Part shown: positions 8,552 through 41,840 of the stretch, piece after piece
Position numbering within the stretch: the stretch's first letter is position 1
Layout: each line of letters begins with the position of its first letter
Assembly (NCBI GenBank): GCA_963738155.1
Contig: CAVTVG010000007.1
Location: 249,834-313,833, forward strand
Source: an uncultured Alphaproteobacteria bacterium
Lineage (GTDB): Bacteria > Pseudomonadota > Alphaproteobacteria > Rhizobiales > Xanthobacteraceae
Reading direction: 5' to 3'
DNA length: 64,000 nt
Notes under the pieces: model-generated
Seen by the model: the letters and a program-made list of their open reading frames with translations, nothing else
The model's database searches: none
Told to the model about the DNA's origin: nothing
Position numbers and translations under genes: made by a program

Positions 8552-8719
8552 CTAGTGCCCACTTTTCGAAGTTCGTGCTCCGTTGCATGCTACCGTTCAC
8601 GAACTTCGGAAAGTTATGGGTTACTAGCAAATCTATGATTCTAGTGCCGCTTTCGATCTGAAGTCCCTGAACCCGATTTCGCCGCGCGCGAGTCAGGGAC
8701 TTCAGATCGGCGGCACTAG
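8552..8719. repeat. CTAG-bounded double-hairpin element, copy 1 (subfamily I)
   Basis: Hairpin A 8552-8627, linker CAAATCTATGATT, hairpin B 8641-8719; near-identical to 32520-32686 and to the reverse complement of 39082-39245. Confidence 0.95.
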
Positions 8720-8829
8720 GGCCGTTGTTTTTACCACGTTAAGCAAGCCGCATTAGGTATTGGCCGCTTTCAAGTTTTCACCACAATTGGTGGTCGGAAA
8801 TGGTCCCGCTTTCATCGGCGGAGATTCTC

Positions 8830-9060
8830 ATGCGAATCGCAAAATTCACGATGATCGGTTCCATCTCGGCTTTGGCCCTTGCCACGGCGCCTGCACTTGC
8901 CAAGAACGCCGCGCCACCTCAGAGGCCCGACGACCAGTCCGCCTCCTGCCATTCCTACCGGATGGGCGCGGACGGATCGTGGACGGTCCTGCCTTGCCAT
9001 GAGGCCGGGCAGACCGAGCACAAGCCGCCTCCGAAGGCTGGCGAACAAGAGCCGCGCTGA
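8830..9060 (+). CDS. Small secreted protein with a Cys pair
   Basis: RBS GGAG, signal peptide, SCHSY...LPCHE. Confidence 0.65.
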   Translation: MRIAKFTMIGSISALALATAPALAKNAAPPQRPDDQSASCHSYRMGADGSWTVLPCHEAGQTEHKPPPKAGEQEPR

Positions 9061-9083
9061 GGCGTACGGCCCCGGGGAGAGCG

Positions 9084-9761
9084 CTACTCCGCGAAACCGA
9101 CATAACGCACGAACTCTTCGTGCTGCTTGCGGTCCGAGCGCACGCCGTTGGCGGGGAATGAGTCGTCGGGATATCCCATGGCGACGCAAGTCATGATCAC
9201 CTGGTCTTCGGGAATCTTCGCCACCTCGCGCACGATGTCCGAACGCATGATGCCTTGCCCGTTGATCACGCTGCCGAGCCCGCGATCCCATGCGGCGAGC
9301 ACGATGCCGTAGCAGAGCGCACCGAGATCGAAATGACAGACCGCGCCGGGATCGAGGGCGCGATCATAGGTCAGGACCAGCGACACCGGCGCGTCGAACT
9401 GCCGGAAGCCGCGCAGCACCCAGTCCTGCCGCATCGGCTTGTCGTCGCGCGCGATCCCCATCGCACCGAACAGTTTCTTGGCGATGTCGACCTGACGCTG
9501 GCGATGCACGCCCTGATATTCGCCATGGCTGACGATGTCGCGCTTCGGCCTCGCGCCCGCCACCATCTCTTCCATGTTACGGCGGCGAACCTCCTCGAGG
9601 GCCTCGCCGGCCAGGGCATGGATATGCCATGGCTGCGTATTCATCGACGACGGCGCGCGCTTGGCGACCTCGATGATTTCGGCGATGACCGCGCGGGCGA
9701 CCGGCTCTTTCTTAAATCCGCGCACGCTGCGGCGCGATTGGACCAGCTCCTCGAAATCCAT
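9084..9761 (-). CDS. Nitroreductase family protein
   Basis: SRRSVRGF, APSSMNTQPW, GLGSVING, CVAMGYP. Confidence 0.92.
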   Translation of the reverse strand: MDFEELVQSRRSVRGFKKEPVARAVIAEIIEVAKRAPSSMNTQPWHIHALAGEALEEVRRRNMEEMVAGARPKRDIVSHGEYQGVHRQRQVDIAKKLFGAMGIARDDKPMRQDWVLRGFRQFDAPVSLVLTYDRALDPGAVCHFDLGALCYGIVLAAWDRGLGSVINGQGIMRSDIVREVAKIPEDQVIMTCVAMGYPDDSFPANGVRSDRKQHEEFVRYVGFAE

Positions 9762-9852
9762 TTCCCCCTCTTCCCCGCCTGCAATTGTCGGACCGATGGC
9801 TATTACTTATGCTGAAGCCATTCCAGAAGAAAAGACACCCAAGGAAGCCTCA

Positions 9853-10809
9853 ATGCCCGCCCCTCTCGACCCCGTCGTCGCCCAGATCATCCCGCTGCTG
9901 CCGCTGCGCGATCCCACGACCATGACGCCGCAAAGCGCCCGCGACGCGCTGCGTGCGCTGGCCGCCTCCCGCGCGGGGGTGCCGCCGCCTCCGGTCGCCG
10001 AGGTCAAGGACATCACGGTCAAGGGCGGAGCCGGACCACTTGCGGCGAGGGTTTATCGCCCCGCCCCTGGCAAATCGCCGACAGTCGTATTCTTCCATGG
10101 CGGCGGCTGGGTTGCGGGCGATCTGGAGACCCACGACCGGCAGGCGCGATGGCTCGCGATCGAGACCGGCGCGGTGGTGGTCTCCGTCGATTACCGCCGC
10201 CCGCCCGAGACGCCCTTCCCCGGCGCCTTCGAAGACGCCTTTGCCGCGGTGAAAGACGTGGCAAACCGTATCGCGGAATTTGGCGGAGACGCCGATCGTC
10301 TCGGTGTCGCCGGCGACAGCGCGGGCGGCAACCTCGCCGCGACCACAGCGATTGCCTGCCGCGATGCCGGCATCAAGCTCGCCGCGCAGCTGCTGGTCTA
10401 TCCCGTCACCGATGCGCACGGCAGTTATGCCGATGCGACCGAAAACGCGCGTTACCCGTCACGCGCCGCCAATGCGGACGGCTATTTCCTGTCGCGGGCG
10501 GTGATGGAATGGTTTTGCGGCCATTATCTTGCCGACAAGTCGCATGGCGCCGACTGGCGCGTCTCGCCGCTGCGGGCCAAGGACCATGCCGGGCTCGCGC
10601 CCGCCATCGTCTGCACCGCCTGGTACGATCCGTTGCGCGACGAGGGCATTGCCTACGCCGCCGCGCTCGAAACCGCCGATGTCCCGACCCGGCATTACAG
10701 CGGCGAAGGCCTGATCCACGGCTATTTCGGGCTGGGCGAGGCCTCCGAGGTTGCGCGCGCGGAGGCGCAGCGGGCGCGCGCCGATTTCAAGGCGCTGCTG
10801 CAGCGCTGA
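9853..10809 (+). CDS. HSL-family esterase/lipase (alpha/beta hydrolase_3)
   Basis: HGGGW oxyanion motif, GDSAGG, YDPLRDEG, IHGY. Confidence 0.92.
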   Translation: MPAPLDPVVAQIIPLLPLRDPTTMTPQSARDALRALAASRAGVPPPPVAEVKDITVKGGAGPLAARVYRPAPGKSPTVVFFHGGGWVAGDLETHDRQARWLAIETGAVVVSVDYRRPPETPFPGAFEDAFAAVKDVANRIAEFGGDADRLGVAGDSAGGNLAATTAIACRDAGIKLAAQLLVYPVTDAHGSYADATENARYPSRAANADGYFLSRAVMEWFCGHYLADKSHGADWRVSPLRAKDHAGLAPAIVCTAWYDPLRDEGIAYAAALETADVPTRHYSGEGLIHGYFGLGEASEVARAEAQRARADFKALLQR

Positions 10810-10941
10810 TCCTGACTGGAAGATGAACGCGCCAAGCCGTCTGGCCGAATATATTCCATCGGTCTGGCCTGCGGGAGCTTGATCGCGGCCGGATTCCAAG
10901 TTCCAATCGCAGCACTTTTCTTCGTCCAGGGAGACATCACG

Positions 10942-11190
10942 ATGAAGCGGATTTTATTGGCTGCCGTTATCGCCACTTTCGCGGCCGGCTCGGCCTTCGC
11001 ACAGGACGCGTCCTGCGACGCCAAGGCAGTCGGCAAGGACGGCAAGCCGCTCGCGGGCGCGGCCAAAACCTCGTTCATGAAGAAGTGCACCCACGATGCC
11101 TGCGAGGCCAAGGCTGTCAGCGCTGACGGCAAGAAGCTTTCTGGCGCCGCAAAGACCGCCTCCATGAAGAAGTGCGAAGCCGGCGGCTAG
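10942..11190 (+). CDS. Small secreted PsiF-like repeat protein
   Basis: Signal peptide; two C-x-AKAV..DGK.L.GAAKT..MKKC repeats; RBS GGGAG. Confidence 0.8.
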   Translation: MKRILLAAVIATFAAGSAFAQDASCDAKAVGKDGKPLAGAAKTSFMKKCTHDACEAKAVSADGKKLSGAAKTASMKKCEAGG

Positions 11191-11208
11191 TCCTTACAGA
11201 CTTCAAGC

Positions 11209-11240
11209 AAAAGGGCGGCCACGAGGCCGCCCTTTTTTCG
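11209..11240. terminator. Bidirectional intrinsic terminator
   Basis: AAAAGGGCGGCC-ACGA-GGCCGCCCTTTTTT between convergent genes. Confidence 0.85.
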
Positions 11241-11254
11241 TTTGCCTGGGATTA

Positions 11255-11716
11255 TCAGGCCCGGCCGGTGTGGCCCCAGGTCTCGTCCCAGTCCTGACCA
11301 TTGGCATCGATCACGCGGCCATCGGCCTCGAAGAACTTGTTCGGGACCTGGAAGATCGCAAGCATCAGGCCGCCTTCCGGACACCAAGCCACATGGCGGC
11401 TGTGCGCCTCGCGCCAGATGAACTCACCGGCCTTGCATACGATCCCCTTGGCCGGGCCTTCCTTGTCGACGAGAGAGCCCTCCAGCACATAGGTCTGCTC
11501 GATATTGACGTGCTCGTGGTCGGGCAGCACCGCGCCGGGCGCGAAGCGCATCAGCGCCGTCATCAATCCGGTCGTTCGATCGAACAGCAGCGTCTTGGCC
11601 TCGCAGCCGGGAAAGCGCGTCTTCTGCCACTCCATGTGCTGCGGCTGAACCAGATGAGAATGAGTGTCGGCGGTATCGTGGCCCTTGTCATGACCCTTGG
11701 GCGTCACGGCATCCAT
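11255..11716 (-). CDS. Cupin domain protein (ChrR-like / Cupin_7)
   Basis: RFAPGAVLPDHEHVNIEQTYVLEG...SRH cupin metal motif. Confidence 0.85.
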   Translation of the reverse strand: MDAVTPKGHDKGHDTADTHSHLVQPQHMEWQKTRFPGCEAKTLLFDRTTGLMTALMRFAPGAVLPDHEHVNIEQTYVLEGSLVDKEGPAKGIVCKAGEFIWREAHSRHVAWCPEGGLMLAIFQVPNKFFEADGRVIDANGQDWDETWGHTGRA

Positions 11717-11768
11717 GGCGGCTCTCCCGTTATGTTTGACGCGACGATAGCAGGTTTGCCGGTACGCG

Positions 11769-12581
11769 TCAGGTGCCCACCCGCAACGGCGCATTGAGCT
11801 TGCGCAGGCAGGCAATCACGCTCAGGGCGGTGATCAGCCCGGTTTTGGGGTTTTCCGACGGGATATTCTCGATGGTCATCGAGAACCGCGCGGAATCCGA
11901 ATCGACCTCGATCCGGTGGGTGTTGCGCGTCACGGTCGGGTCGGCCCAGATTTCGACTCTGGTGCGGTCGGCGCCGATCCCCGCCAGCGACAGCGCGACA
12001 GCGACATTGAGATTGGCGGGAAAGCCTTTGGCCGCTTCCCGCGCGGTGCCGTCGAAGATCTTTAGCGGCGCCTTGATGTCGGCAATGTCGATCTTGTGCT
12101 CGATCAGGTACGGCGCGCCTTCCAACCCCTTCAACGGCTTGCGGGTGACCATCTGCACCGAGTGGATGGTGCCGACCGCTGCCGCTGTCATGGCATCGAG
12201 CCCGATCAGCGCACCCGTCGGCACCACGATCTGGCCGCCCTTCGCTTTCGCCAGCGCGATCAGGTCCTCGTTCTCCAGCAGCGCGCCTACGCTGAGCACG
12301 ACCGCGATCTTGCCGCGCGACACCACGGGGGCGACGATGGCGCGGACCAGTTTGCTCGGCGCGCATTCGACGACGATATCGGCGGCATCGGCGAGCGCTT
12401 CGATTGGCAGCGCCGCAGGTTGTTTCTTGAGCCTGTCGAGCCAGTGGCGATGCTTCTCGATGTTCGCGGCGGAGACCGCCGCAAGCTCCATGCCATCAAT
12501 CCCATCATCGAGAGCTTTGGCGAGCCTCGTTCCGATCGGACCGAGACCGGCGATCGCCACGCGTGAGACGGTCGCGTTCAC
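11769..12581 (-). CDS. nadX: L-aspartate dehydrogenase homologue
   Basis: GLGPIG, VVECAP, SVGAL, GALIGLD, AREAAKGFPANLNVA, NTHRIEV, NPKTG. Confidence 0.85.
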   Translation of the reverse strand: MNATVSRVAIAGLGPIGTRLAKALDDGIDGMELAAVSAANIEKHRHWLDRLKKQPAALPIEALADAADIVVECAPSKLVRAIVAPVVSRGKIAVVLSVGALLENEDLIALAKAKGGQIVVPTGALIGLDAMTAAAVGTIHSVQMVTRKPLKGLEGAPYLIEHKIDIADIKAPLKIFDGTAREAAKGFPANLNVAVALSLAGIGADRTRVEIWADPTVTRNTHRIEVDSDSARFSMTIENIPSENPKTGLITALSVIACLRKLNAPLRVGT

Positions 12582-12584
12582 ACG

Positions 12585-13460
12585 CTAATCCCGCTTGAAG
12601 CGATAGTCGAAACGGTTGCCGTCCGCCTTCAGCAAGCCCACCGTCGGACGCGGAAAATGGATCGGGAGGATCAGCGTGTCGGTATCGGCGACGGAGGCAA
12701 AGAATTTCCGCCGCGACACTGCCGATAGTTTTGGATCCCAGTCCGGCCGCGCCGACCAGTCCGGCTCGCGGCACTGGATGGCGTGATGCATGAGGTCGCC
12801 GGCAACCACCGCGCGCTTACCCCTGGAGAAGATATTGACGCAGCAATGGCAGGGCGAATGCCCCGGCGTCGGCGTCAGCGTGACGGTGTCGTCGAGCGCA
12901 TAGTCGTCATCGACCAGGAGCGCCTGGCCGGCTTCCATGATCGGCAGGCAGTTGTCGCGAAACACCGTGCCGGGCGGATTGCTACCCTTCTTGTTCTCCT
13001 GCTCCCACGCGGCGTATTCGCGCTTGTGGAAGACGTATTTCGCATTCGGGAAGGTCGGTACCCAGCGGCCGTCACGCAACGTCGTGTTCCAGCCGGTGTG
13101 ATCGATGTGGAGGTGCGTGCAGAAGACGTAATCGATCTTGTCGAAGGAGATGCCGAGCGCGAACAGCTCGTTGCGCCAGCGCTCCTTGCCGGGAAAATCG
13201 AATGGCGGCGGATGGCCCTTGTCCTCGCCGGTGCAGGTATCGACCAGGATGGTGTATTTCGGCGTGCGCACCACGAAGGTCTGGTAGGTGATGTTCATCA
13301 GCCCGAGCGCGGCGTCGTAGAACTCCGGCGCCATGCTCGGCAGATGATGCTCGAAGACGGCATCGTCGTAGGCGGGAAAGAAATCCTGCGGCCGCCGCCA
13401 CGGCCCCTCGCGCTCGATCACCGCATCGATGGTGATGTCCCCGATCCGAAGCTGCTTCAT
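12585..13460 (-). CDS. MBL-fold metallo-hydrolase (lactonase-like)
   Basis: THLHIDHTG (HxHxDH), TPGHSPCH, AGDLMH, PIHF. Confidence 0.9.
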   Translation of the reverse strand: MKQLRIGDITIDAVIEREGPWRRPQDFFPAYDDAVFEHHLPSMAPEFYDAALGLMNITYQTFVVRTPKYTILVDTCTGEDKGHPPPFDFPGKERWRNELFALGISFDKIDYVFCTHLHIDHTGWNTTLRDGRWVPTFPNAKYVFHKREYAAWEQENKKGSNPPGTVFRDNCLPIMEAGQALLVDDDYALDDTVTLTPTPGHSPCHCCVNIFSRGKRAVVAGDLMHHAIQCREPDWSARPDWDPKLSAVSRRKFFASVADTDTLILPIHFPRPTVGLLKADGNRFDYRFKRD

Positions 13461-13547
13461 CGTTCTCTCCCCATTTTTCGGGAGAGCGTAGCGGGCAGCC
13501 CGCAATCGTTCAAGCGGTGGGCTGATATGCAGGGCGTGCCGACCGTC

Positions 13548-15170
13548 TCAGCTTCTGAGCCCCGGCGCCTCGTGGCCGGTGCGCGCGACATATTCGGTGT
13601 AGCCGCCGCCATATTGATGCACGCCCTCCGGCGTCAGCTCCAGCACGCGATTTGAAAGCGCCGCCAGGAAGTGCCGGTCGTGCGACACGAACAGCATGGT
13701 GCCTTCGAATTCCGACAGCGCACCGATCAGCATTTCCTTGGTCGCGAGATCGAGATGGTTGGTCGGCTCGTCCAGAACAAGGAAATTCGGCGGATCGAAC
13801 AGCATCTTCGCCATCACCAGCCGCGCTTTCTCGCCGCCCGACAGCACCCGACATCGTTTCTCGATGTCGTCGCCGGAAAAGCCGAAGCAACCGGCAAGCG
13901 TGCGTAACGACCCCTGCCCGGCCTGCGGAAACGAATCCTCCAGCAACTCGAAGACGGTCTGTTCGCCGTCGAGCAGATCCATGGCGTGCTGGGCGAAATA
14001 GCCCATCTTGACGCTGGCGCCGACCGCCACGCTGCCGTCGTCCGGTTCGGTCGCGCCGGCGACCAGCCTGAGCAAGGTCGACTTGCCGGCGCCGTTGACG
14101 CCCATCACGCACCAGCGCTCCCGGCGGCGAATGGTGAAATCGAACCCGTCATAGATGCTGCGCTTGCCATAGCTCTTGTGAACGTTCTTCAGGCTGGCGA
14201 CGTCCTCGCCCGAGCGCGGCGCCGGCAGAAAGTCGAATGCCACCGTCTGGCGCCGGCGCGGTGGCTCGACCCGCTCGATCTTCTCCAGCTTCTTCACCCG
14301 ACTCTGTACCTGCGCAGCGTGCGAGGCACGCGCCTTGAAGCGCTCGATGAACTTGATCTCCTTGGCGAGCATCGCCTGCTGGCGCTCGAATTGGGCTTGC
14401 TGCTGCCTTTCATTCAGCGCGCGCTGCTGTTCATAGAACTCGTAATCGCCGGAATAGGTCGTCAGTGTGCCGCCGTCGATCTCGACGATCTTGTTGACGA
14501 TGCGGTTGATGAATTCGCGGTCGTGCGAGGTCATCATCAGCGCGCCTTCATAGCCCTTCAGGAACTGTTCCAGCCAGATCAGGCTTTCGAGATCGAGATG
14601 GTTGCTCGGCTCGTCCAGCAGCATCACGTCGGGGCGCATCAGGAGGATGCGCGCCAGCGCCACCCGCATCTTCCAGCCGCCTGACAGCGCGCCGACGTCG
14701 CCGTCCATCATCTCCTGGCTGAAGCTCAGGCCGGCGAGCACTTCGCGTGCGCGGGTCTCCAGCGCATAGCCATCGAGCTCTTCGAAGCGCGCCTGCACCT
14801 CGCCATAGCGCGCGATGATCTCGTCCATCTCGTCGGCGCGATCGGGATCGGCCATCGCGACTTCCAGATCTTTCAGCTCGGCCGCAACACCGCTGACCGC
14901 GCCTGCACCGTCCATCACTTCGGCAACGGCACTGCGGCCCGACATCTCGCCGACATCCTGGCTGAAATAGCCGATGGTGACGCCACGATCGACCGAGACC
15001 TGCCCCTCATCGGGTTGCTCCTGTCCCGTCATCATCCGAAACAGCGTGGTCTTGCCGGCGCCATTGGGGCCGACCAGGCCGGCTTTCTCACCCTTCTGGA
15101 GCGCCGCCGAGGCTTCGATGAAGAGGATCTGGTGACCTTGCTGCTTGCTGATGTTGTCGAGGCGGATCAT
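13548..15170 (-). CDS. ABC-F family ATPase
   Basis: Two ABC domains (GPNGAGKT / GVNGAGKS, LSGG, LDEPSNHLD / LDEPTNHLD), no TM segments. Confidence 0.93.
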   Translation of the reverse strand: MIRLDNISKQQGHQILFIEASAALQKGEKAGLVGPNGAGKTTLFRMMTGQEQPDEGQVSVDRGVTIGYFSQDVGEMSGRSAVAEVMDGAGAVSGVAAELKDLEVAMADPDRADEMDEIIARYGEVQARFEELDGYALETRAREVLAGLSFSQEMMDGDVGALSGGWKMRVALARILLMRPDVMLLDEPSNHLDLESLIWLEQFLKGYEGALMMTSHDREFINRIVNKIVEIDGGTLTTYSGDYEFYEQQRALNERQQQAQFERQQAMLAKEIKFIERFKARASHAAQVQSRVKKLEKIERVEPPRRRQTVAFDFLPAPRSGEDVASLKNVHKSYGKRSIYDGFDFTIRRRERWCVMGVNGAGKSTLLRLVAGATEPDDGSVAVGASVKMGYFAQHAMDLLDGEQTVFELLEDSFPQAGQGSLRTLAGCFGFSGDDIEKRCRVLSGGEKARLVMAKMLFDPPNFLVLDEPTNHLDLATKEMLIGALSEFEGTMLFVSHDRHFLAALSNRVLELTPEGVHQYGGGYTEYVARTGHEAPGLRS

Positions 15171-15259
15171 GGCACGCGAAAAGAGAGGAATCGTCGCGGC
15201 CGCTCTTAGGCCATCTCGGTTGTCAACGGAAGCAGGTTCCGCACACGGTTCGCGCCATC

Positions 15260-15577
15260 TCAATTGGCCGCGCCGTCGGGCGACCCGTAATGGCGCACAA
15301 TCGCAATGCATTCGTCGATATCGGCCCGGATCTTCAATGCGGTCGGCAGATCGAAATTGATGTAGCTGGTCGGCGAGCCCTCAGGTCCGATGGAGCCGTC
15401 GGCTTTCATCTTGACGCAGACGTAGTAGGATTTTTCATCCACGCCGCGCTTGACCTGCCACTGGAATTGCGAGCTCGCGGCCTGTCCGCGGACGATCTCC
15501 GATTCGAATACGACATCGCCGAACGGCGCCTTGAAACTCTTCGATGGCGCAAGAAGCCTCCGCAACGGACCCCACAT
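15260..15577 (-). CDS. Hypothetical protein
   Basis: Globular-looking 105-aa ORF filling the gap; start uncertain. Confidence 0.45.
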   Translation of the reverse strand: MWGPLRRLLAPSKSFKAPFGDVVFESEIVRGQAASSQFQWQVKRGVDEKSYYVCVKMKADGSIGPEGSPTSYINFDLPTALKIRADIDECIAIVRHYGSPDGAAN

Positions 15578-17435: not shown

Positions 17436-18140
17436 CTACGCCCGCCGCATCAATTTCAGCACTGCAGCCAATCGCAGGCTGCGCTTGCCCGCCAGCGCCG
17501 TGGCCTCGATCGAGGCGCCCTCTTCGTTGCAGGTGCCGGAGAAACCGATGCCGACCTCATGGCCGCCGAACACCGGGTTTTCGCCCTTGGAGGGGGTATG
17601 CTCCTGGTTGAGGATCTGGCCCTTCCAGCGTCCGTTCGCGCTGGTGTAGGTGCCGAGATAGTAGAAGAAGGCGTCGCCGCCCAGGATGCGGCCGTCATTG
17701 AGCAGCATCACGCCGTTCAGCCCACCGTCGACGCCATCGAGCGCGCGCAGGTGGATCGAATAGAGGCCGTTGACGACGCCATCCTCGCCAACGCCGCCGG
17801 CGATCGGCAGCGGCTGTTCCTCGACCGGCGTCATCACCGACCTGAAGACCGCGCCCGGCAATTCCTTCAACGCGCCTTCGAAGCGAAAGACGTTTCCGTC
17901 GGGCCTGCCGCGCGCGATCAGGGTCGCGTCATCGGTGCCGGCGAGCGCCCGGTAATTCGGATCGGGATTGTGACGGACCGTCTTGATCTCGGTCGCGACC
18001 TCGCCGCCCGTCTCTTCATAGGTGCCGATATGGGCAAAGGCCGAATTGCCGCCGAGCATCTTGCCGTCGCGCGCGTACATCACGCTGCGGCCGCCCGCCT
18101 CGTTGACCTGAAACCTGACGGTGTAGAAACCCCCGAACAC
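17436..18140 (-). CDS. Tandem GrlR-like domain protein, paralogue 1
   Basis: Two repeats of G.Y...F/L...G......DG...GG(N/D)..F...G.Y; similar to 24008-24730. Confidence 0.7.
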   Translation of the reverse strand: MFGGFYTVRFQVNEAGGRSVMYARDGKMLGGNSAFAHIGTYEETGGEVATEIKTVRHNPDPNYRALAGTDDATLIARGRPDGNVFRFEGALKELPGAVFRSVMTPVEEQPLPIAGGVGEDGVVNGLYSIHLRALDGVDGGLNGVMLLNDGRILGGDAFFYYLGTYTSANGRWKGQILNQEHTPSKGENPVFGGHEVGIGFSGTCNEEGASIEATALAGKRSLRLAAVLKLMRRA

Positions 18141-24007: not shown

Positions 24008-24730
24008 TCAGGCTTCGATCAGTTTCTTGAGAACCGCCTTGAAACGGATGCTGCGCTTGCCGGCGAGCGCCGTGGCTTCGCCTTCGGCTCCCTCACGGTT
24101 ATAGGTGCCGGAAAAACCGATCCCGACCTCATGCCCGCCGAACAGCGGGCGCTCGCCGCGGCTTGGGGTGTGCTCGCGGTTGACGATCTCGCCCTTCCAT
24201 TTGCCGTTCTCGGCACTGTAGGCGCCGAGATAGTCGAAATAGGCGTCGCCGCCGCGGATACGGCCATCCTGCAGCATCATGACGCCGGTGGCGCCGCCGT
24301 CGATGCCGTCGAGCATGCGGATGTGAATGGAATAGAGCCCGTTGCGGATGCCGTTGGCGCCGACGCGGCCGGCCGGCGGCGCGTCGGTATCGTTGATCGG
24401 CGTCAGCACGCTCTCGAAGACGACACCGGGCAATGCCGCGGTGCCGCCTTCCGAGTGCAGTTCATCGCCCTTCCAGTGGCTGCGGAAGGTCATGACGACA
24501 TTGTCGACGGGATACAGCGGCGCATAGGCGGGATCGTGGTTGTGGCGGGACATCATCATCTCGGAGACGATCTCCTCGCCCTCCACCGTGTAGCTGCCGA
24601 TGAAGGACGAGCCGGAATTGCCGCCATAGAGCTTGCCGTCCTCGGTCGCGAACATGACGCCGCAGCCGGTGCCGCGCGCCGTCTTGAATGCGAATTTGTA
24701 AAGACCTTTCAGCAACACGCCGCTGTCCAC
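24008..24730 (-). CDS. Tandem GrlR-like domain protein, paralogue 2
   Basis: Same two-domain pattern as 17436-18140; C-domain strongly similar (NGLYSIH...FGGHEVGIGFSGT...ATALAGKRS). Confidence 0.7.
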   Translation of the reverse strand: MDSGVLLKGLYKFAFKTARGTGCGVMFATEDGKLYGGNSGSSFIGSYTVEGEEIVSEMMMSRHNHDPAYAPLYPVDNVVMTFRSHWKGDELHSEGGTAALPGVVFESVLTPINDTDAPPAGRVGANGIRNGLYSIHIRMLDGIDGGATGVMMLQDGRIRGGDAYFDYLGAYSAENGKWKGEIVNREHTPSRGERPLFGGHEVGIGFSGTYNREGAEGEATALAGKRSIRFKAVLKKLIEA

Positions 24731-27147: not shown

Positions 27148-27310
27148 CTAGTGGAGCGGATTTGACGTTCGCTACCCACCACGAGCACTCGTAAGCGAAC
27201 GTCAAATCCAAAGCTCCACTAGAATCAATATTTTCTAGTCGTCCTTTGATTCCAACATTCGCAAGCGTGCCCGCTGCAACGGGGTGCGAATGTTGGAATC
27301 AGACCGCTAG
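27148..27310. repeat. CTAG-bounded double-hairpin element, subfamily II, full copy
   Basis: Hairpin 27148-27222 (perfect 26 bp plus AAA bulge, 20-nt loop), linker AATCAATATTTT, hairpin 27235-27310 (21-nt loop). Confidence 0.92.
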
Positions 27311-27705
27311 AGGACCATTTGGGTCTGGGTGACGATCGCGACCAACTTGCCCTCTTCGGTCTCAAGCCGCGTGGTCCAGACCTGGGTGCGGCGGCCGCGA
27401 TGCACCGGGGTGGCGGTCGCAATCAGCGTGATCCCCTCCTTCGCGCCGCCGATGAAGTTGGTCTTGCTCTCAAGCGTCGTCGTGCCCTTGGCGTCCTCGG
27501 GCAGATTGATGACGGTCGCGGCGGCGCCGACGGAGTCGGCAAAGGCCATGACCGCACCGCCATGAATGGTGTTGTTGGCGGTGCAGAGGTCCGGCCGCAC
27601 CGTCATGCGCGCCACCACACGATCCCTATCGGCTTCGACGAACGTCACGCCCTTCAAATCTGCGAACGGAATTTTCATCGAACGGATTTTCTCAAGCGGC
27701 GTCAT
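27307..27705 (-). CDS. PaaI family thioesterase (hotdog fold)
   Basis: IHGGAVMAFADSVG, TTTLESKTNF, HRGRRTQVW. Confidence 0.92.
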   Translation of the reverse strand: MTPLEKIRSMKIPFADLKGVTFVEADRDRVVARMTVRPDLCTANNTIHGGAVMAFADSVGAAATVINLPEDAKGTTTLESKTNFIGGAKEGITLIATATPVHRGRRTQVWTTRLETEEGKLVAIVTQTQMVL

Positions 27706-31408: not shown

Positions 31409-31445
31409 GAATTGTTTCGTCGGCTCGTCAGCGACGAAACAATTC
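31409..31445. repeat. Perfect 14-bp inverted repeat in a divergent intergenic region
   Basis: GAATTGTTTCGTCG-gctcgtcag-CGACGAAACAATTC. Confidence 0.85.
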
Positions 31446-32519: not shown

Positions 32520-32686
32520 CTAGTGCTCACTTTCCGAAGCTCGTGTTCCCTCGCCGCACGCACTATCACGAACTTCGGAAAGTCATGGGCACTAGCAAAC
32601 TTATGATTCTAGTGCCGCTTTTCGATCTGAAGTCCCTGGGAGAACTCGCGGCCTGCGGTGCAGGGACTTCAGATCGGCGGCACTAG
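32520..32686. repeat. CTAG-bounded double-hairpin element, copy 2 (subfamily I)
   Basis: Hairpin A 32520-32595, linker CAAACTTATGATT, hairpin B 32609-32686. Confidence 0.95.
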
Positions 32687-34687: not shown

Positions 34688-36301
34688 ATGGACCAGGCCT
34701 CGCATCACCCGGCACATTCGGACGCATTTGACCGGCTGACCTTTCTCGGCTGGCGGGGCAGCCTCGCCGCTGTCGTCGCGGGGCTTGCCGTCTCCTTCCT
34801 GCTGTTCGGCTATTTCGTCGTCTACTGGCGCAATGCCGACATGGATTTCATGGTGGTCTACAGCGCGCTCGCCATGAATGCCGGAAAGCCGCAGCAATAT
34901 CTCGACCATCCCGCCTATCTGACCATCCTGTCGGTGAAATCCTGGTTCGCGCTGCTGCATCAGCTTAGCCTGCTCGATGCCTGGACGCTGCCGGCGATCC
35001 CGAAAGCCACGGATGCTGCAGCCTTCGATGCCGCGATGACGCATGCGGTCCGCGCTGGGCGCGTGCTCGTCTTCGCGATCGCCATGGGCTGCATCGCGAT
35101 CTTCGCCGCGCTGTCACGGCTGATCGTGCGCGACTGGCGCGTTGCGCTGCTCGCCACCCTTGCCTTTGCATTGTCCGGCGGGATTGCCGTGCATTTGCGT
35201 ATCCTGCGCAGCGAGCTCGTCGCCGCTTGCCCGGTAATCTTCGCGCTGATGCTGCTGATCGCGATCGGCCGCCGCGCCCATGCGGCGCGCCCGTTCGCGC
35301 TCGCCCTGGCAGCGGCGCTCTGCATGCTCGGGCTCGAGAACAAGGTGCAGGCAATCCTGTTGATCGGCGTGCTCCCGGTGCTGATCCTGCCGTTCGGCGG
35401 CCCTAGCAGTGCCAGCGTCGCCTTCTGGAGGACGGGCGTCGCCTGGATCGTGGTTCTCTTCGCCGCGATCGTTGCGAGCGTTGCGGCATGGATGGCGTGG
35501 CCGCTGATCTCCGTCGGCCTCGACCGCAGCCTGCTCGTTTCAGCGCAATTCCATCCGCTGCTGTTCAATCGCTACGGCGTCTATCAGTTGGCACTGCTCG
35601 TCCTGATCGCCGGCTGCATGATCGCCTATGCCGCGACCTGGCGGATCAGCGTTGCCGAAACTCTGGCGTCGATCTCCGCGGTGATCGCCGGCGCGGCGCT
35701 GACGCTGCTGCTGCTTGACCTCGATTACAATGCCGCCAACGCGATCGCCGTCGTTAATCCGCTGGAGAAGATGCTGACCTTTGCCGATCCGAACACGGCG
35801 AACGCTGCCGATAGCGCAAGTCCTGTCGCCGCGGTCCTGCTGTTGCTGCGAGGGCTCGGCTCGGTGCTTGCGCGCTACACCTTCGTGCTGCATTCGTCTC
35901 CCCGCCCGACCGTGTTCCTGATCTGGCTGATCATCCCCGGCATCATCTGCGCGTGGCGGCGCGGCGAACGGCAGGCGGCGCTGCAGGCGGCCATTCTGAT
36001 GCTCGCCGTGCTTGCCACCGATACGCTGGGTGTCCAGCGCGGCTTGAAAGCCGAATATTTCATCTTCAGCGATCCCTTGATCATCATTGCAGGCGCGATC
36101 CTGCTCGACGCGCTGCGCGATCTGCGCTTCCACAAATGGGCGTTTCCGATCGCGGCGACGCTGCTCGGCCTGCATATTGCGTTCAGCCAGGCCGAGCCGG
36201 TGAAATATGCCTTCAAGAAGACAGGGCCGGAATCGACCTGCGAATGGAATGGCTACTACATGCCGCTGATGCCCCTGCCGTGGTGCGTGGGGCGGTCGTA
36301 A
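34688..36301 (+). CDS. Polytopic membrane protein (possibly a GT-C-like cell-envelope modifier)
   Basis: More than 10 hydrophobic segments; DHPAYLT loop; function uncertain. Confidence 0.7.
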   Translation: MDQASHHPAHSDAFDRLTFLGWRGSLAAVVAGLAVSFLLFGYFVVYWRNADMDFMVVYSALAMNAGKPQQYLDHPAYLTILSVKSWFALLHQLSLLDAWTLPAIPKATDAAAFDAAMTHAVRAGRVLVFAIAMGCIAIFAALSRLIVRDWRVALLATLAFALSGGIAVHLRILRSELVAACPVIFALMLLIAIGRRAHAARPFALALAAALCMLGLENKVQAILLIGVLPVLILPFGGPSSASVAFWRTGVAWIVVLFAAIVASVAAWMAWPLISVGLDRSLLVSAQFHPLLFNRYGVYQLALLVLIAGCMIAYAATWRISVAETLASISAVIAGAALTLLLLDLDYNAANAIAVVNPLEKMLTFADPNTANAADSASPVAAVLLLLRGLGSVLARYTFVLHSSPRPTVFLIWLIIPGIICAWRRGERQAALQAAILMLAVLATDTLGVQRGLKAEYFIFSDPLIIIAGAILLDALRDLRFHKWAFPIAATLLGLHIAFSQAEPVKYAFKKTGPESTCEWNGYYMPLMPLPWCVGRS

Positions 36302-36366
36302 CGGCCTGTTGAGCGGAGGCGCTTCGCTGCCGTGCTATTCTCGACTGCACCGAGCAGAGAGGCCCC

Positions 36367-36927
36367 ATGATCGACCGCAGGACCATGATCGCAGGCGCGT
36401 TGGCAGCAGCGACCGTACCGCTCGCCGCGCGCGGACAGGTGAGCCGCGTCACCGCTTACGCATTCTCATTCCCGGCGCTTGAGTCCGGCGACATCCGCCT
36501 CGCCGAATACACCGGCCATCCCTTCCTCGTCGTCAACACCGCCTCGCAATGCGGCTACACCCCGCAATATGCGGGCTTGCAGCAATTGTGGAGCGAGTTT
36601 CACGGCCGTGGACTGACCATCATTGGCGTCCCCTCCAACGATTTCGGCGGCCAGGAGCCGGGCGGGCCCAAGGAGATCGCGCAGACTGCGCAACACGACT
36701 ATGCCGTTACCTTCCCGATCGCGGCCAAGGCCGCCGTAATCGGCCCTAGCGCCCATCCCTTCTACAAATGGGCCGCGCAGGCGCGGCCGACGGATGTGCC
36801 GAAATGGAACTTCCATAAGTATCTGATCGGGCGCGACGGCTATATCGCCGACGTCTTCGCCTCCGCCGTGGAGCCGAGCGATACGCGCGTGAAAACCGCG
36901 ATCGCAAAGGCGTTCGCGGATACGTAA
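36367..36927 (+). CDS. Glutathione peroxidase-like protein with Tat-type signal
   Basis: NTASQCGYTPQY, GVPSNDFGGQEPG, WNFHKYLI; N-terminal DRRTMI. Confidence 0.92.
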   Translation: MIDRRTMIAGALAAATVPLAARGQVSRVTAYAFSFPALESGDIRLAEYTGHPFLVVNTASQCGYTPQYAGLQQLWSEFHGRGLTIIGVPSNDFGGQEPGGPKEIAQTAQHDYAVTFPIAAKAAVIGPSAHPFYKWAAQARPTDVPKWNFHKYLIGRDGYIADVFASAVEPSDTRVKTAIAKAFADT

Positions 36928-37083
36928 GGCACAGTTCCCGAAATTAACCGCTCCCGCGACATTACGGGTCGCATTGTCGCGCCTTGGCGCAGCCGCCCGG
37001 ACTAGGCTATACGGGGTCAGGCAGGAACGCCCGGATGACGGCTCACGATAGCCGCACGGGCCATAAAATCTGGGATCATCAAA

Positions 37084-38028
37084 ATGCGTGTTGCGGCAGG
37101 ATTGTTGGTTGCGGTTTCCCTTTGCGTGCCCGGGATGGCGTGGTCGCAGACCGCGGCGCCTCAGGCGGCTCCTGCCCCGGCGGCGCCCGCTCCCGCAGCA
37201 GCGCCCGCTGCCGCCCAACCGCCCCAGCCGGCACGCGCTGCCTGCACCAATCCGGATGCTCTGGGCGTCGCCCGCACTCTCGAGATTGATACGACGGGTG
37301 GCCCGGGCTTCGGCTTCGAGCATTTCAAGGAGTTGGACTTCCTGAAGGACAAGGAAGTCGTGCTCACCTTCGACGACGGCCCGTGGGAGAAGAACACCGA
37401 AATGGTGCTCAAGGCGCTGGCGGACCAGTGCACCACCGGCATCTTCTTCGAGATCGGGAAGCACGCGACCTACTACCCCGAGATCGCCAAGAAGGTCTAT
37501 GCGGCCGGCCATACCATCGGCACCCACACCTGGTCGCATGAAACCTTGGTCAACAAGAAGCTCAGCGAGGACCAGCGCAAGGAAGAGATCGAGAAAGGCA
37601 TCAGCGCCGTGAAGTGGGCGCTGGGCGGCATCTCGCCGTCGTCATTCTTCCGCTTCCCGGCGCTGCAGCATCCGCCGGAGATGGTCACTTATCTCGGCGA
37701 GCGCAACATCGCGATCTTCTCCTGCGACGTCAACTCCTTCGACTTCAAGTATCACGATCCGAAGAAGGTCATGAACCTGATCTTCCACGGGCTGGAAAAG
37801 AAGGGCAAGGGCATCATCCTGATGCACGACTTCCACAAGGAAACCGCCGCGCTGCTGCCCGACATCCTGAAGCGGCTGAAGGCCGAAGGCTACAAGGTCG
37901 TTGCCATGCGCTCCAAGGCGCCGGTGAAGTCGCTGCCGCAATACGACGAAGCGCTGATGAAGGAAGCCAAGCTGCCGACGGTGAGCAACCGGCCGCTGTC
38001 GAGCGTCGTCACCGAGGTCTCGCAGTAG
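37084..38028 (+). CDS. Secreted polysaccharide deacetylase (NodB/CE4)
   Basis: TFDDGP, HTWSH, FRFP, LMHD; signal peptide and Pro/Ala linker. Confidence 0.92.
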   Translation: MRVAAGLLVAVSLCVPGMAWSQTAAPQAAPAPAAPAPAAAPAAAQPPQPARAACTNPDALGVARTLEIDTTGGPGFGFEHFKELDFLKDKEVVLTFDDGPWEKNTEMVLKALADQCTTGIFFEIGKHATYYPEIAKKVYAAGHTIGTHTWSHETLVNKKLSEDQRKEEIEKGISAVKWALGGISPSSFFRFPALQHPPEMVTYLGERNIAIFSCDVNSFDFKYHDPKKVMNLIFHGLEKKGKGIILMHDFHKETAALLPDILKRLKAEGYKVVAMRSKAPVKSLPQYDEALMKEAKLPTVSNRPLSSVVTEVSQ

Positions 38029-38045
38029 AGCGGTCGCGCCAAATC

Positions 38046-38600
38046 GTGGCGTTCCGGATCGAGGGCTACGTCATCGTCTCGGCCGACGGCATGCTCGCCA
38101 ATGCCGCGCATGTCATGCCGGATGAATTGCGGATCGAGGGCGACAAGACCTTCTTCACCGCCGCCCTCGACCGCGCCGATCTCGTCGTGCACGGCCGCAA
38201 TTCCGGCGAAGCGCAGCCCAATTCGCCCAAACGAACGCGGCTTGTCCTGACGCGCAGCGTGGCCACGCTCGCGCCCGATCCCGAAAATCCCAAGGCGACC
38301 TTGTGGAATCCAGCCGGCGCGTCGTTCGAGCAGGCGGCTGAAAAGGCCGGCGTGCGCTCGGGCACCATCAGCATCATTGGCGGGCCGGCCGTGTTCGGCC
38401 TGTTCATGGACCGCTACGAGACGTTCTGGCTGTCGGAGGCACCCGAGGTGAAAATCCCCGGCGGCGAAGGCTGTTTTCCCGGCGTGCCCGAGCTTACCCC
38501 GCACCAGATCCTCAGCTCGCATGGACTGAAACCCGGCACGCCTCAACTGCTCGATGCGGCCGAGAATGTCACCGTCACGCCGTGGCGGCGTAACGGCTGA
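38046..38600 (+). CDS. Dihydrofolate reductase-like (RibD C-terminal fold) protein
   Basis: YVIVSADGMLA, HGRNS, IIGGPAVF; GTG start. Confidence 0.75.
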   Translation: MAFRIEGYVIVSADGMLANAAHVMPDELRIEGDKTFFTAALDRADLVVHGRNSGEAQPNSPKRTRLVLTRSVATLAPDPENPKATLWNPAGASFEQAAEKAGVRSGTISIIGGPAVFGLFMDRYETFWLSEAPEVKIPGGEGCFPGVPELTPHQILSSHGLKPGTPQLLDAAENVTVTPWRRNG

Positions 38601-38612
38601 GGCGTTGAGCGA

Positions 38613-39062
38613 CTAAACATCTCCGTAGGCCGGCTCGGCGGCGCGCCGTCCGCGTCCGTAGCCCGCGATCATGAATAGCGCGCCGATGATCGACAAGTTC
38701 TTGAGAGCATCGACAATCATCGTCGCGTCCCCCGGCGCCGGTTGAGCCCAGAAATTATAGAAATAGAAGGTAGAGACGGCGACAAGGACGATGAGGAGAA
38801 CTGCAAAGAACCGCACACCAAAATTGATCGCCAGCATCAACCCTGCAAGGACTTCAAACCCACCAACCAAAATGGCAAGCAACGTAAATGGCTCCATTTG
38901 GCTCAAGTTTTTGAGGTTGTCGACATAGGGCATCAGGAGCGAGGGGATCACGACCTTGTCGCTCATCAGCTTGGCCGTGGTCTGAACATCGAAAAGTTTC
39001 TCTGCCCCGAGGTAGATGAAGAGCACGGCGAACAGGACTCGCCCGAAGGTTATGAATGGCAT
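38613..39062 (-). CDS. DoxX family membrane protein
   Basis: GRVLFAVLFIYLG, FEVLAGLML, KNLSIIGAL; ATG at 39062. Confidence 0.85.
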   Translation of the reverse strand: MPFITFGRVLFAVLFIYLGAEKLFDVQTTAKLMSDKVVIPSLLMPYVDNLKNLSQMEPFTLLAILVGGFEVLAGLMLAINFGVRFFAVLLIVLVAVSTFYFYNFWAQPAPGDATMIVDALKNLSIIGALFMIAGYGRGRRAAEPAYGDV

Positions 39063-39081
39063 TGTCGGCCTCTTGAAAGCT

Positions 39082-39245
39082 CTCGTACCGCCGATCTGAA
39101 GTCCCTGCACCATCCGCCGTGAATTGTTATCAGGGACTTCAGATCGGCGGTACTAAAATCATAAGTTTGCTAGTGCCCATAACTTTCCGAAGTTCGTGAA
39201 AGTGCGTGCGGCGATGGATCACGAACTTCGGAAAGTGGGCACTAG
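39082..39245. repeat. CTAG-bounded double-hairpin element, copy 3 (subfamily I, inverted)
   Basis: Hairpin B 39082-39156, linker, hairpin A 39170-39245 (perfect 26 bp plus ATA bulge). Confidence 0.95.
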
Positions 39246-39356
39246 TGCGAGGAAATCGAACGGCTGCGCAATTATGGAGGTTCCGCCGGCGCTTTTCAAA
39301 CGATTCAACTCAGGCCCGCGCGAGGAACCGAGCCGGTCCAAATCATACCCCCACGC

Positions 39357-41663
39357 TCACGTGAACAGGCTCGGCTGCTGCTTCCCCGCACGCTCCTGGG
39401 CCTCGACGGCGGCGACCGCCGTCATGTTGAGGATGCCGCGGGCAGTCACAGAGGGCGTTAGAATGTGCGCCGGACGCGCCGGCCCGATCAGGATCGGCCC
39501 GACCGGAATGGCATCTGTGAGGACCTTGACCATCTGGTGGGCAATGTTGGCGGCATCCAGCGTCGGCATCATCAGGATGTTCGCCTCGCCCTGCAGTCCG
39601 GAATCCGGCAGAACCAGTTTTCGCGTCGCTTCCGACAGCGCCGTGTCACCCTGCATTTCGCCGTCGGCTTCGAGCTGTGGATGATGCAGCTTCAGCAGCG
39701 CGGTCGCATTGCGCATCTTGCGCGCGGTCTCGGTGTCGTAGCTGCCGAAATCGGAATGCGACAGGAAGGCGATCCTCGGCACCAGGTTGAAACGCCGGAC
39801 GTGATTGGCCGCCAGTGCCGCCACCTCGCAAAGCTCGTCCGCGCTCGGATTGGGCCGCACCTCGGTGTCCGCAATGAAATAGGCGCCCTTGGTCGTGATC
39901 AGCATGCCCAGCGCCGCGAAGTCGCTGACCTCGGGCGCATGGCCGATGATGTCACGGACGTGGCGCAGGTGCCGCATATAGCGGCCTTCGAGGCCGCAGA
40001 TCATCGCGTCGGCCTCGCCGCGGGCGACCGCGAGCGCAGCGATAACAGTGTTGTTGGTGCGCACCAGCGTGCGCGCCGCATCCGGCGTGACGCCGCGGCG
40101 GCCGGCGACCTCGATATAGGTCTGCACATAAGAGCGATAACGCGGATCGTCCTCGGGATTGACCAGGTCGAAATCGCGACCCGCCTTGATCGACAGACCG
40201 AAGCGCTCAATCCGCGCCTCCACCACAGACGGACGGCCGACCAGAATCAGCTTGGCGAGGCCTTCCTCGAGCACCTGTTGGGTGGCGCGCAGCACGCGCT
40301 CGTCCTCGCCTTCGGCGTAGATCACCCGCACCGGCTGGCTCCTCGCCTTGGCGAAGAGTGGCCGCATGATGAGGCCGGAGCGGAACGCGAAGCGTTCCAG
40401 CAGCCCGGTATATTCGTCGAAATTCTTGATCGGCCGTGTCGCGACGCCGGACTCCATCGCAGCCTTGGCGACCGCCGGCGCGATGCGTTGAATCAATCGG
40501 GGATCAAACGGACTCGGGATCAGCGAGCCCGGACCGAACCCTTGCGATTCGGCGCCGGCCAAACCACGCACCACCACGTCGGACGGCGGATCGCGCGCCA
40601 GCTGCGCAATGGCATCGACCGCGGCGTGCTTCATCTCCTCGTTGATGGCGGTGGCGCCGACATCGAGCGCGCCGCGGAAGATGAAGGGGAAGCACAGGAC
40701 ATTGTTGACCTGGTTCGGGAAGTCGGAGCGGCCGGTGCAGATCATCGCATCGGGCCGCGCCGCGCGCGCCTCGTCCGGCATGATCTCGGGATCAGGATTG
40801 GCGAGCGCCATCACCAGCGGTCCCTTGCCCATCTGCTTGACCATGTCGGGAGTCAGGACCCGCGGGGCCGAGAGCCCGAGGAAGATGTCGGCGCCGCCGA
40901 TGACGTCGGCGAGCTTCCGCTTGTCGGTCTTCTGCGCATAGACCCCCTTCCACCGGTCCATCAGGGTCGGGCGGCCTTCATAGACCACGCCCTCGATGTC
41001 GCAGACCCAGATGTTCTCGCGCCTGGCGCCGAGCGAGACCAGCAGATTGAGGCAGGCGATCGCGGCAGCCCCTGCCCCGGAACAGACGATCTTGACGTCC
41101 GGCAGCTTCTTGCCGTTGAGAAGCAGCGCGTTGGTGATCGCCGCGCCGACGATGATGGCGGTGCCATGCTGGTCGTCGTGGAACACCGGGATCTTCATGC
41201 GCTCCTTCAGCTGCGCCTCGATCTCGAAGCATTCGGGTCCCTTGATGTCTTCGAGATTGATGCCGCCGAAGGTCGGCTCCAGCGCCGCCACCGTCTCAAC
41301 CACGCGCTCGATGGTGTCGGCCGCGATTTCGATGTCGAAGACGTCGATCCCGGCGAATTTCTTGAACAGCACCGCCTTGCCTTCCATGACGGGCTTGGAG
41401 GCGAGCGGGCCGATATTGCCGAGCCCGAGCACCGCGGTACCGTTGGAGACGACCGCGACCAGATTCGCGCGCGCGGTCAGCGAGGCGGCCTCTCCGGGGT
41501 TCTGGGCAATCTCGGTACAGGCGGCGGCGACGCCGGGGGAATAGGCGAGAGCGAGGTCGCGCTGGTTGGCGAGCGGCTTGGTGGCGTGAATTTCGAGTTT
41601 TCCCGGCTGCGGCAGGCGGTGATAGGCCAATGCTGCGGCATGCAGGTCTTCGGAATAGGACAT
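39357..41663 (-). CDS. maeB: NAD(P)-dependent malic enzyme with C-terminal phosphotransacetylase-like domain
   Basis: [56 protein letters not shown]-like C-domain. Position relative to glnII recalls the DME-type locus of B. diazoefficiens (from memory). Confidence 0.95.
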
Positions 41664-41758
41664 TCGCTCCCCCGAGGCTCATTCGACCCCACCGACGCTC
41701 AGTTCCGGTGTTGTCTCCGATCCGTTTTGCGGCAGATTGAACCGGATGTGAAGCCCGC

Positions 41759-41840
41759 CTGATGGTCCGATTTCAACATTCGCAGCCCATTCTAACAGGT
41801 ACTTTTGCGAATGTTGAAATCAAAGGACCGCTGGCAAATA
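41759..41840. repeat. Truncated double-hairpin element (subfamily II, hairpin A plus half of the linker)
   Basis: GGTCCGATTTCAACATTCGCA-N21-TGCGAATGTTGAAATC[AAA]GGACC then CAAATA; aligns with the reverse complement of 27235-27310. Confidence 0.88.

Follow-up and report, generated by a model that had tools for sequence, protein, structure and literature searches.

The 64,000-nucleotide (nt) stretch of DNA analysed here (the window: positions 249,834 to 313,833 of contig CAVTVG010000007.1, from an uncultured alphaproteobacterium of the Xanthobacteraceae) contains five copies, one of them a half copy, of an element made up of two hairpins, each bounded by CTAG and joined by an AT-rich linker. 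These CTAG-bounded double hairpins are miniature mobile elements, present in high copy number in Bradyrhizobium and other Hyphomicrobiales. On the evidence of sequence comparison, their arms share homology with the terminal inverted repeats (TIRs) of IS630-family (Tc1/mariner-like) insertion sequences (ISs), and the probable mobilising enzyme is therefore an IS630-family transposase. It seems likely that the elements are non-autonomous miniature transposable elements with inverted repeats (MITEs) derived from both ends of such an IS, and that a transposase of the IS630 family moves them in trans, duplicating a TA dinucleotide; the double-foldback architecture would then be an unusual variant within the superfamily of IS630-derived MITEs. 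An earlier note on the window had taken the mobilising enzyme to be unresolved. The resemblance of the arms to the TIRs of ISs that encode DDE_3 transposases leaves that statement unsupported, and provides a concrete candidate for the enzyme that mobilises intergenic palindromes of a very abundant alphaproteobacterial class.

Each full copy in the window, with a length of about 165 nt, consists of CTAG, a 26-nt arm, a 20–24-nt loop, a 29–30-nt arm and a further CTAG, followed by a 12–13-nt AT-rich linker and a mirror-image hairpin, the longer arms (with three to four extra bases) facing the linker. Every full copy folds as two hairpins, with an RNA minimum free energy of −83 to −96 kcal/mol; folded as DNA, copy C gives −54.3 kcal/mol, compared with −22.5 ± 2.9 for shuffled sequences (z = −11). 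The window has 11 long hairpins, nine of which are parts of the elements, and element boundaries account for 14 of its 40 CTAG sites, a tetranucleotide that is about fivefold under-represented there (about 217 sites would be expected from base composition). Reading and folding alike bore out the four full copies and one half copy that the earlier note had described, with the small correction that the half copy, copy E, ends at 41834 and not at 41840, and profile hidden Markov models (HMMs) made from related copies revealed none beyond these five places in the window. Not all are intact: both CTAGs of copy E are decayed (to CTGA and CTGG), and the second hairpin of copy D has lost its bulge and has two degenerate CTAGs (CTCG and CTAA). 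The two subfamilies previously recognized among the copies were upheld and, because the profiles align subfamily 2, when inverted, with the whole length of subfamily 1 (E = 6e-12 to 7e-14), they are homologous.

The elements are widespread. A search of species-representative genomes with one exact 17-mer from an arm gave at least 116 loci (cited below by L numbers), and among the matches listed those carrying the element were nearly all from Bradyrhizobium, Afipia, Bradyrhizobiaceae or alphaproteobacterial metagenome-assembled genomes (MAGs). The 0.9 Mb represented by these loci contains at least 111 full-length composites, of which 91 belong to subfamily 1 and 20 to subfamily 2. The further copies and, as described below for copies B and C, the empty alleles that the earlier note had proposed to look for were both found. 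Full copies are 163–172 nt long, non-coding and multicopy; they have sharp edges at the outer CTAGs and unrelated flanks, the sequence beyond CTAG being random. A de novo scan of 0.97 Mb found 304 long hairpins, 155 of which are flanked by CTAG at either end; these belong to eight or more sequence families, all with a single geometry: a hairpin of 74–80 nt, an outer arm of 26 nt and an inner arm of 29–30 nt, the latter with a mostly T-rich insertion of 3–4 nt placed 9–10 nt from CTAG. Both bulged arms face a 12–14-nt linker in 45 of 48 adjacent hairpin pairs. The earlier suggestion that stem length and bulge position are kept therefore holds across the 155 related hairpins, but fails for the decayed hairpin of copy D, which has no bulge.

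Among 103 distinct hairpins the two arms agree with each other at 96–100% at every position, and CTAG, TG, T14, G17, A18, T21, T22 and C23 are near-invariant, whereas arm positions 7–13, 15–16, 19–20 and 24–26 are occupied by two to four different bases across the families. The loops do differ between copies, as had been noted, but they do not vary freely: within a family they are homologous, those of subfamily 1 having a consensus fraction of about 0.6–0.9, compared with 0.9 or more for stems and 0.3 for flanks. A central GCNGC is present in nearly all loops, and has the same strand polarity in both hairpins of 13 of 16 scorable pairs, although GCNGC is palindromic and its polarity consequently ambiguous.

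Distant full-length relatives occur on replicons of Martelella, Rhizobium, Ochrobactrum (one full double-hairpin copy), Agrobacterium and Aminobacter. In soil and mine metagenomes, the only ones in which the window sequence was detected (at most 0.39 of sampled words), depth over copy A is 10–300 times that of its flanks, and contigs split into unrelated flanks exactly at its ends, 8552 and 8719. A blastn comparison of copy A with plasmids gave no match, and a search of Rfam gave none at the gathering score (only chance-level microRNA and small nucleolar RNA matches at E ≤ 10). A full-text literature search with arm sequences matched primers only, and no account of the family came to light in the open literature that was searched.

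Some loci contain minimal or chimeric forms (L100, 3403–3462; L103, 1349–1403; L089, 1483–1629): in some, the outer arms of two hairpins are joined directly through a loop-sized stretch, and in another an arm is fused to the arm of a different family. These look like products of deletion or recombination between hairpins. The Bradyrhizobium arm 17-mer is also contained in three copies of an otherwise unrelated repeat (...GGATTTTTCCTCAAGAAAAATCCACCCT followed by CACGAACTTCGGAAAGT) in the Acidobacteria MAG LL6.bin61 (L017, 6118–6179; L037, 1119–1180; L072, 5299–5360), which looks like a separate repeat family.

Evidence of mobility comes from nested copies, an interrupted gene and empty orthologous sites. 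Copies of subfamily 2 are nested, in either direction (L045 and L097), in copies of subfamily 1 at the CTAG that separates hairpin from linker, copies of subfamily 1 are found inside subfamily 2 and inside other families, and uninterrupted relatives have a single CTAG at every nesting point. Tandem copies have one CTAG in common (L012). The Martelella copy splits a reverse-transcriptase open reading frame (ORF), and its excision, with one CTAG left behind, restores that ORF (...LLYIERWLEAPVQMPDG.../...LLYIERWLEAPVQMPDGSLVARERGTPQGGVISPLLANLFLHY...; RVT_1 E = 8e-26). Copy B is precisely absent from eight syntenic orthologous loci (L123–L130), which have 4 nt in its place (TCAG in L124); copy C is precisely absent from L124, which has CCCG instead, and present at the same site in L125 (3662–3827), a locus with an additional element that has no counterpart in the window. 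Such differences in presence and absence are between genomes about 85–90% identical in flanking DNA. Wherever comparison could be made, the unoccupied site is one tetranucleotide (CTAG at nesting points, TCAG or CCCG at the orthologous sites in L124); the earlier note had expected a single CTAG there.

The insertion site of copy B coincides with a changed stop codon. Its terminal CTAG provides the TAG stop of a gene for a PaaI-type thioesterase (27307–27705, minus strand), whereas the orthologue in L124, which has no element, ends in TGA (TCAG on the plus strand), and three other orthologue sequences have TCA at the same place (at about 10395–10400 in the L123–L130 set).

How might the elements be mobilised? 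None of 10 ORFs scanned in the lower-GC region of the window (42–52 kb) was for a transposase, and about 1.2 Mb of related loci contained neither a transposase nor any recurrent gene adjoining copies; the search comprised clustering of ORFs over 118 loci, Pfam analysis of recurrent ORFs, and inspection for unpaired generic arms flanking an ORF. The earlier idea of a non-autonomous element served by an enzyme encoded elsewhere is supported, and the transposase or recombinase genes that the note had proposed to look for were not seen near copies in the related loci surveyed. Between unpaired generic arms lay ORFs for an ABC permease and an ordinary M16 peptidase, which were set aside.

A candidate emerged from a Martelella plasmid (NZ_CP054860.1), which carries, in one replicon, a recent insertion of the element and a matching IS. 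The IS, of 1155 bp, is bounded by CTAG at each end, is inserted in a tctB gene, and is annotated as encoding an IS630-family transposase (WP_180899062.1); its protein has DDE_3 and four helix-turn-helix domains. Its right end (...CGAGGGTTCCAAACGTTGGAATCAAACCACTAG) is identical at 23 of 25 positions to the outer arm in the second hairpin of the element, and the similarity runs on for about 10 nt into the loop; its left end shares with the first hairpin 12 terminal nt and the first bases of the loop. The loop bases adjoining the outer arm align with subterminal sequence of the IS. Relatives are present on 757 plasmid records, 62 of them from Bradyrhizobium. Whether they come from Nitrobacter hamburgensis, Sinorhizobium medicae, B. 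japonicum or metagenomes, the copies all have CTAG at both ends and unrelated flanks. To judge by the title of Tenzen & Ohtsubo (1991; cited in PMC2170065), IS630 prefers TA within 5'-CTAG-3', and the CTAG bounds of these ISs fit that preference. For another member of the family, ISY100, duplication of TA has been found in vitro (PMC2170065).

The comparison extends beyond Martelella. Positions 7–26 of the arms agree with the TIRs of IS630-family ISs of Martelella, Sinorhizobium, Nitrobacter and Bradyrhizobium at 12–17 of 20 positions, compared with 5.1 ± 2.0 for shuffled arms (p = 1e-4 for 14 or more), and arms of the copy B type (subfamily 2) agree with IS630-family TIRs at 12–14 of 20. Only for the second hairpin do the outer-arm scores clearly separate the two ends of the IS (17 versus 9–10 of 20). 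The arms of subfamily 1 (copies A, C and D) stand far from the four ISs compared, and a strict pattern for a cognate IS of that subfamily gave no matches in metagenomes. A relaxed pattern, combining an arm core YYGAAGTYC 14 nt from CTAG with the transposase motif WLNxVE 155–185 nt further in, was found at no fewer than 120 metagenome loci, compared with an estimated chance expectation of less than one; 79 of these loci are complete ISs of 1118–1204 bp, with CTAG at both ends and the TIR consensus CTAGTGTCCTGTGTCTGAAGTTCGTT. This places the arms of subfamily 1 inside the range of TIR sequences found in a large IS630-family clade, although the best relaxed matches (20–21 of 26) include 15 positions forced by the pattern and so represent a match at the level of the clade.

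The outer arms of the elements are in register with the TIRs of the ISs, and when an outer arm is translated in the reading frame of the IS the peptide ends RTSESGH followed by a stop, parallel to RTSGAAH and a stop in the ISs. The inner arms are out of register, and their 3–4-nt insertion separates the conserved core (T..GA..TTC) from the tip. Read by eye, with the inner arms unscored, both arms of one hairpin appear to resemble the same end of the IS. In Martelella, Nitrobacter and Sinorhizobium copies and the metagenome copies read, the reading frame of the transposase extends across the right inverted repeat and ends with the TAG of the terminal CTAG (Table 1), so two of the three bases of the stop codon would come from the duplicated target TA.

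Table 1. Parts and positions of the element copies in the window, and IS630-family ISs whose transposase gene stops within the terminal CTAG
Feature	Position	Strand	Description
Copy A	8552–8719	+	Subfamily 1
Copy A, hairpin 1	8552–8627	+	Core CCGAAGTTCG; outer 26-nt arm, 20-nt loop, inner arm with 3-nt bulge (TAT)
Copy A, AT-rich linker	8628–8640	+	CAAATCTATGATT
Copy A, hairpin 2	8641–8719	+	Core CTGAAGTCCC; inner arm with TTT bulge, 22–24-nt loop, outer arm
Copy B	27148–27310	+	Subfamily 2; hairpin 27148–27222, linker 27223–27234, hairpin 27235–27310
Copy C	32520–32686	+	Subfamily 1; hairpin 32520–32595, linker 32596–32608, hairpin 32609–32686
Copy D	39082–39245	−	Subfamily 1, inverted; hairpin 39082–39156 (decayed), linker 39157–39169, intact hairpin 39170–39245
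Copy E	41759–41834	−	Half copy: solo subfamily 2 hairpin of GATTTCAACATTCGCA type; nhmmer E = 2e-19
IS in L132	25440–26594		Stop in terminal CTAG
IS in L133	529–1680		Stop in terminal CTAG
IS in L135	529–1680		Stop in terminal CTAG
ISs in L141, L142 and L144			Stop in terminal CTAG

A Nitrobacter-type IS630 copy in four soil assemblies (L137–L140, 1–9900) lies beside a QatB/KAP-NTPase gene pair and genes for HipA-type toxins, within a defence and toxin–antitoxin island.

From this, we suggest that the order of parts in the composite would be the left end of the IS, an inverted copy of its left inverted repeat (IRL), the linker, an inverted copy of the right inverted repeat (IRR), and the right end of the IS, each end being retained as the 26-nt TIR plus a few subterminal bases and followed by its inward-facing inverted copy. 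The potential to form hairpins would arise because each IS end is paired with an inverted copy of itself, and since the inner copy has three to four extra bases each half folds, on paper, with a bulge on the linker side. The IRL and IRR of real ISs agree at only 3–13 of 20 positions, so each half is presumably an inverted duplication of one end, or has been homogenised since. (An arrangement of direct-tandem mini-ISs, IRL–IRR, was considered and dropped: both arms of a hairpin, read by eye, resemble the same IS end, and the subfamilies align when one of them is inverted.) The arms would be bound by the N-terminal helix-turn-helix domains of a DDE transposase of the IS630 family, encoded elsewhere; the enzyme would cut at both outer tips, and the unit of about 160 bp would enter the TA of a CTAG, with duplication of the TA. 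The out-of-register inner copies might be bound but left uncut, so that the pair moves as one unit, and they may aid synapsis, across a bendable linker, of an element that would otherwise be too short. The near-perfect complementarity of the arms could have its origin in inverted duplication or in later homogenisation, rather than in selection for a fold in RNA or single-stranded DNA.

Several points weigh against this derivation from IS630-family ISs. Pattern scans of metagenomes gave no IS with TIRs near-identical to those of subfamily 1, which may have been orphaned, or may be moved by a relative with looser specificity. At a CTAG target, duplication of TA is indistinguishable from duplication of CTAG. 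Co-residence of IS and element in one replicon was seen only in Martelella. The 96–100% complementarity within hairpins is maintained despite two to four bases per position across families, and as simple internal deletion of an IS does not predict such symmetry between arms, the fold may have some role. Finally, mobilisation in trans is deduced from sequences.

The symmetry of the arms also bears on a further idea, that the double-foldback plan is a functional design in which the inner TIR copies (as transposase-binding sites that cannot be cleaved) or the arms (as cruciforms or hairpins), together with a bendable linker, let an IS630-family transposase synapse and move a very short unit. We regard this as rather unlikely. 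The inner repeats of Sleeping Beauty-type IR/DR elements are comparable to the proposed inner TIR copies, and such a design, if real, would explain why at least eight diverging families, across five families of Hyphomicrobiales, have the same geometry and near-perfect complementarity.

Could the elements instead be retained for the use of the host, as RNA stabilisers or RNase III sites in untranslated regions, or as sites for integration host factor (IHF) or nucleoid proteins in the manner of BIME-1, with mobility merely ancestral? The family is represented, with many different flanks, in soil metatranscriptome contigs, but these contigs lack direction and may contain DNA, and the occurrence amounts to read-through transcription at most. 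Of 55 copies 11 abut a stop codon, compared with 24 of 219 background CTAGs, as one would predict if TAG stops are rich in CTAG targets. Read by eye on the reverse strand, the AT-rich linker of subfamily 1 is one mismatch from the IHF consensus, WATCAANNNNTTR, and the failure of the strict metagenome pattern to provide an exact partner IS for subfamily 1 also suits retention by the host. On the other side, the elements have no preferred direction relative to adjacent genes (17 same, 27 opposite), their spread over convergent, divergent and tandem spacers is about that of background, copy C has no promoter-like or terminator-like site or consensus, and presence varies between closely related genomes, as described above. 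On balance, maintenance mainly by host use seems improbable.

The earlier note had envisaged recognition of a folded single-stranded DNA or RNA. In such a scheme the hairpin, bulge and loop motif would be read by an enzyme acting on single strands, either an HUH enzyme of the RAYT or IS200–IS605 type or a tyrosine recombinase, for which the attC sites of integrons, folded-hairpin substrates of a tyrosine recombinase, provide a precedent. The scheme would account for the arm complementarity preserved through many compensated differences between families, the fixed bulge position, the conserved loop GCNGC with its usually shared polarity, and the very stable fold (illustrated by copy C as DNA). 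However, no guide tetranucleotide, GTAG or another, lies outside the stem, and the CTAG of the cleavage site is inside it; no HUH or recombinase gene was found near copies in the related loci surveyed; insertion takes place in both orientations at the same site; and homology to IS630 TIRs accounts for the arms, the outer-arm side of the loop aligning with IS subterminal sequence. As DDE_3 transposases act on double-stranded ends, a folded substrate need not be invoked, and we consider recognition by structure very improbable. A transposase of the IS5 family (of IS427/IS711 or IS5 type), with YTAR or CTAG targets and duplications of TA or 4 bp, is most improbable of all, for although target and duplication alone do not separate this family from IS630 (IS711 duplicates TA at YTAR and favours the palindromic repeat Bru-RS1, PMC3163539, and MITEPsy1, thought to be of IS5-family derivation, duplicates CTAG or YTAA, PMC3189936), the arms, including subterminal sequence, are homologous to IS630-family TIRs, in a comparison that covered IS630-family ends only.

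Elements of broadly similar kind are known from other bacteria, and several share features with the IS630-derived elements proposed here. RUP, of pneumococcus, is reportedly a 107-bp single unit in a Gram-positive host, with a TA target, a high copy number and a tendency to insert into its own copies. Like the elements described here it is short, non-coding, abundant and self-nesting, with terminal repeats that resemble those of an IS630-family IS; the TA target would be shared as well. Its mobilisation in trans by IS630-Spn1 has been proposed (Oggioni & Claverys 1999, as cited in PMC2267715), so that by analogy RUP and IS630-Spn1 would be the closest known case in mode of action. The differences are the paired 76-nt foldbacks, out-of-register inner repeats, strict CTAG bounds and hyphomicrobial hosts of the present elements.

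The Correia repeat-enclosed elements (CREE) of Neisseria duplicate TA and have a central IHF site, and we know of no transposase identified for them. They have one pair of inverted repeats rather than two foldbacks, but their tip, TAGTGGATTAA, is close to those of the IS630 clade discussed here (TAGTGGATTGA), homology having been compared at the tip only. CREE are about 100–155 bp long, with 26-bp inverted repeats (PMC5039591). As a separate observation, the start of the Correia repeat, TATAGTGGATTAA (PMC5039591), has 10 of 11 tip bases after TA in common with the IS tips (C)TAGTGGATTGA in L132 and L135; this may be due to chance, or may provide a lead to the Correia transposase.

MITEPsy1 of Pseudomonas syringae, of about 100 nt, inserts at CTAG or YTAA and has been shown to transpose (PMC3189936); it differs in being attributed to the IS5-family ISPsy2, and in having 18-nt TIRs, a 4-nt duplication and no double hairpin. 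With REPINs and BIMEs the elements have in common inverted palindromic pairs with a spacer, intergenic location, high copy number and non-autonomy, and in shape they recall BIME-1, with its two inverted units around a central protein-binding linker. The REPIN/RAYT system uses repetitive extragenic palindromic (REP) sequences tagged with GTAG, on which an HUH tyrosine transposase acts as single strands (PMC3116915, PMC3733652), whereas our elements have CTAG on both sides of each hairpin, no GTAG, and arms that correspond to IS630 TIRs. Their termini also differ from those of the GTAG and CGTC REP families listed for Bradyrhizobium (PMC3733652). Two repeats described from Bradyrhizobium, Br-REP1 (consensus CCGGAATCTCGAGATTCCGG) and Br-REP2 (PMC5082802), were rejected as identical to the elements, the sequences being unrelated to both printed consensus sequences, and the Br-REP1 consensus had no match in the window with up to three mismatches. 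Relationship to GTAG or CGTC REPs, or to QMITE2 of Coxiella, was likewise rejected on the grounds of different sequences and termini. RIME1 and RIME2 of Rhizobiaceae, and Bru-RS1 and Bru-RS2 of Brucella, to which (together with CIR) the earlier note had likened the elements, resemble them as alphaproteobacterial intergenic repeats made from large palindromes. RIME elements are reportedly 108–109 bp in length. Bru-RS elements are 103–106 bp long (PMC10800456), and Bru-RS1 has a YTAR site that is used by IS711 (PMC3163539). Both groups are set apart from the present elements, with their 163–172 bp, by reported length only.

The elements have some practical consequences. They break metagenome assemblies exactly at their ends, and they both generate and contain stop codons of adjacent genes. 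Because they differ between close strains they can serve as strain markers, and they matter for annotation and for the prediction of small RNAs. The conserved, out-of-register inner repeats could, moreover, reveal how transposases of the Tc1/mariner type handle very short substrates.

Other repeats in the window are separate from this family. Two tandem 77-nt units, 87 nt apart and 78% identical, lie at 11012–11175 within a small ORF (10879–11190, plus strand), and suggest a small protein with internal repeats and a C..KKC motif. A 300-nt direct repeat of 74% identity, with a spacing of 6572 nt (17455–17754 and 24027–24326), falls within ORFs 17436–18140 and 24008–24730 (both minus strand), which are probably paralogous genes. 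Two strong hairpins unrelated to the elements, at 31409–31445 and 63763–63807, have in one case a 14-bp stem with a 9-nt loop and in the other an imperfect 19-nt stem with a 7-nt loop.

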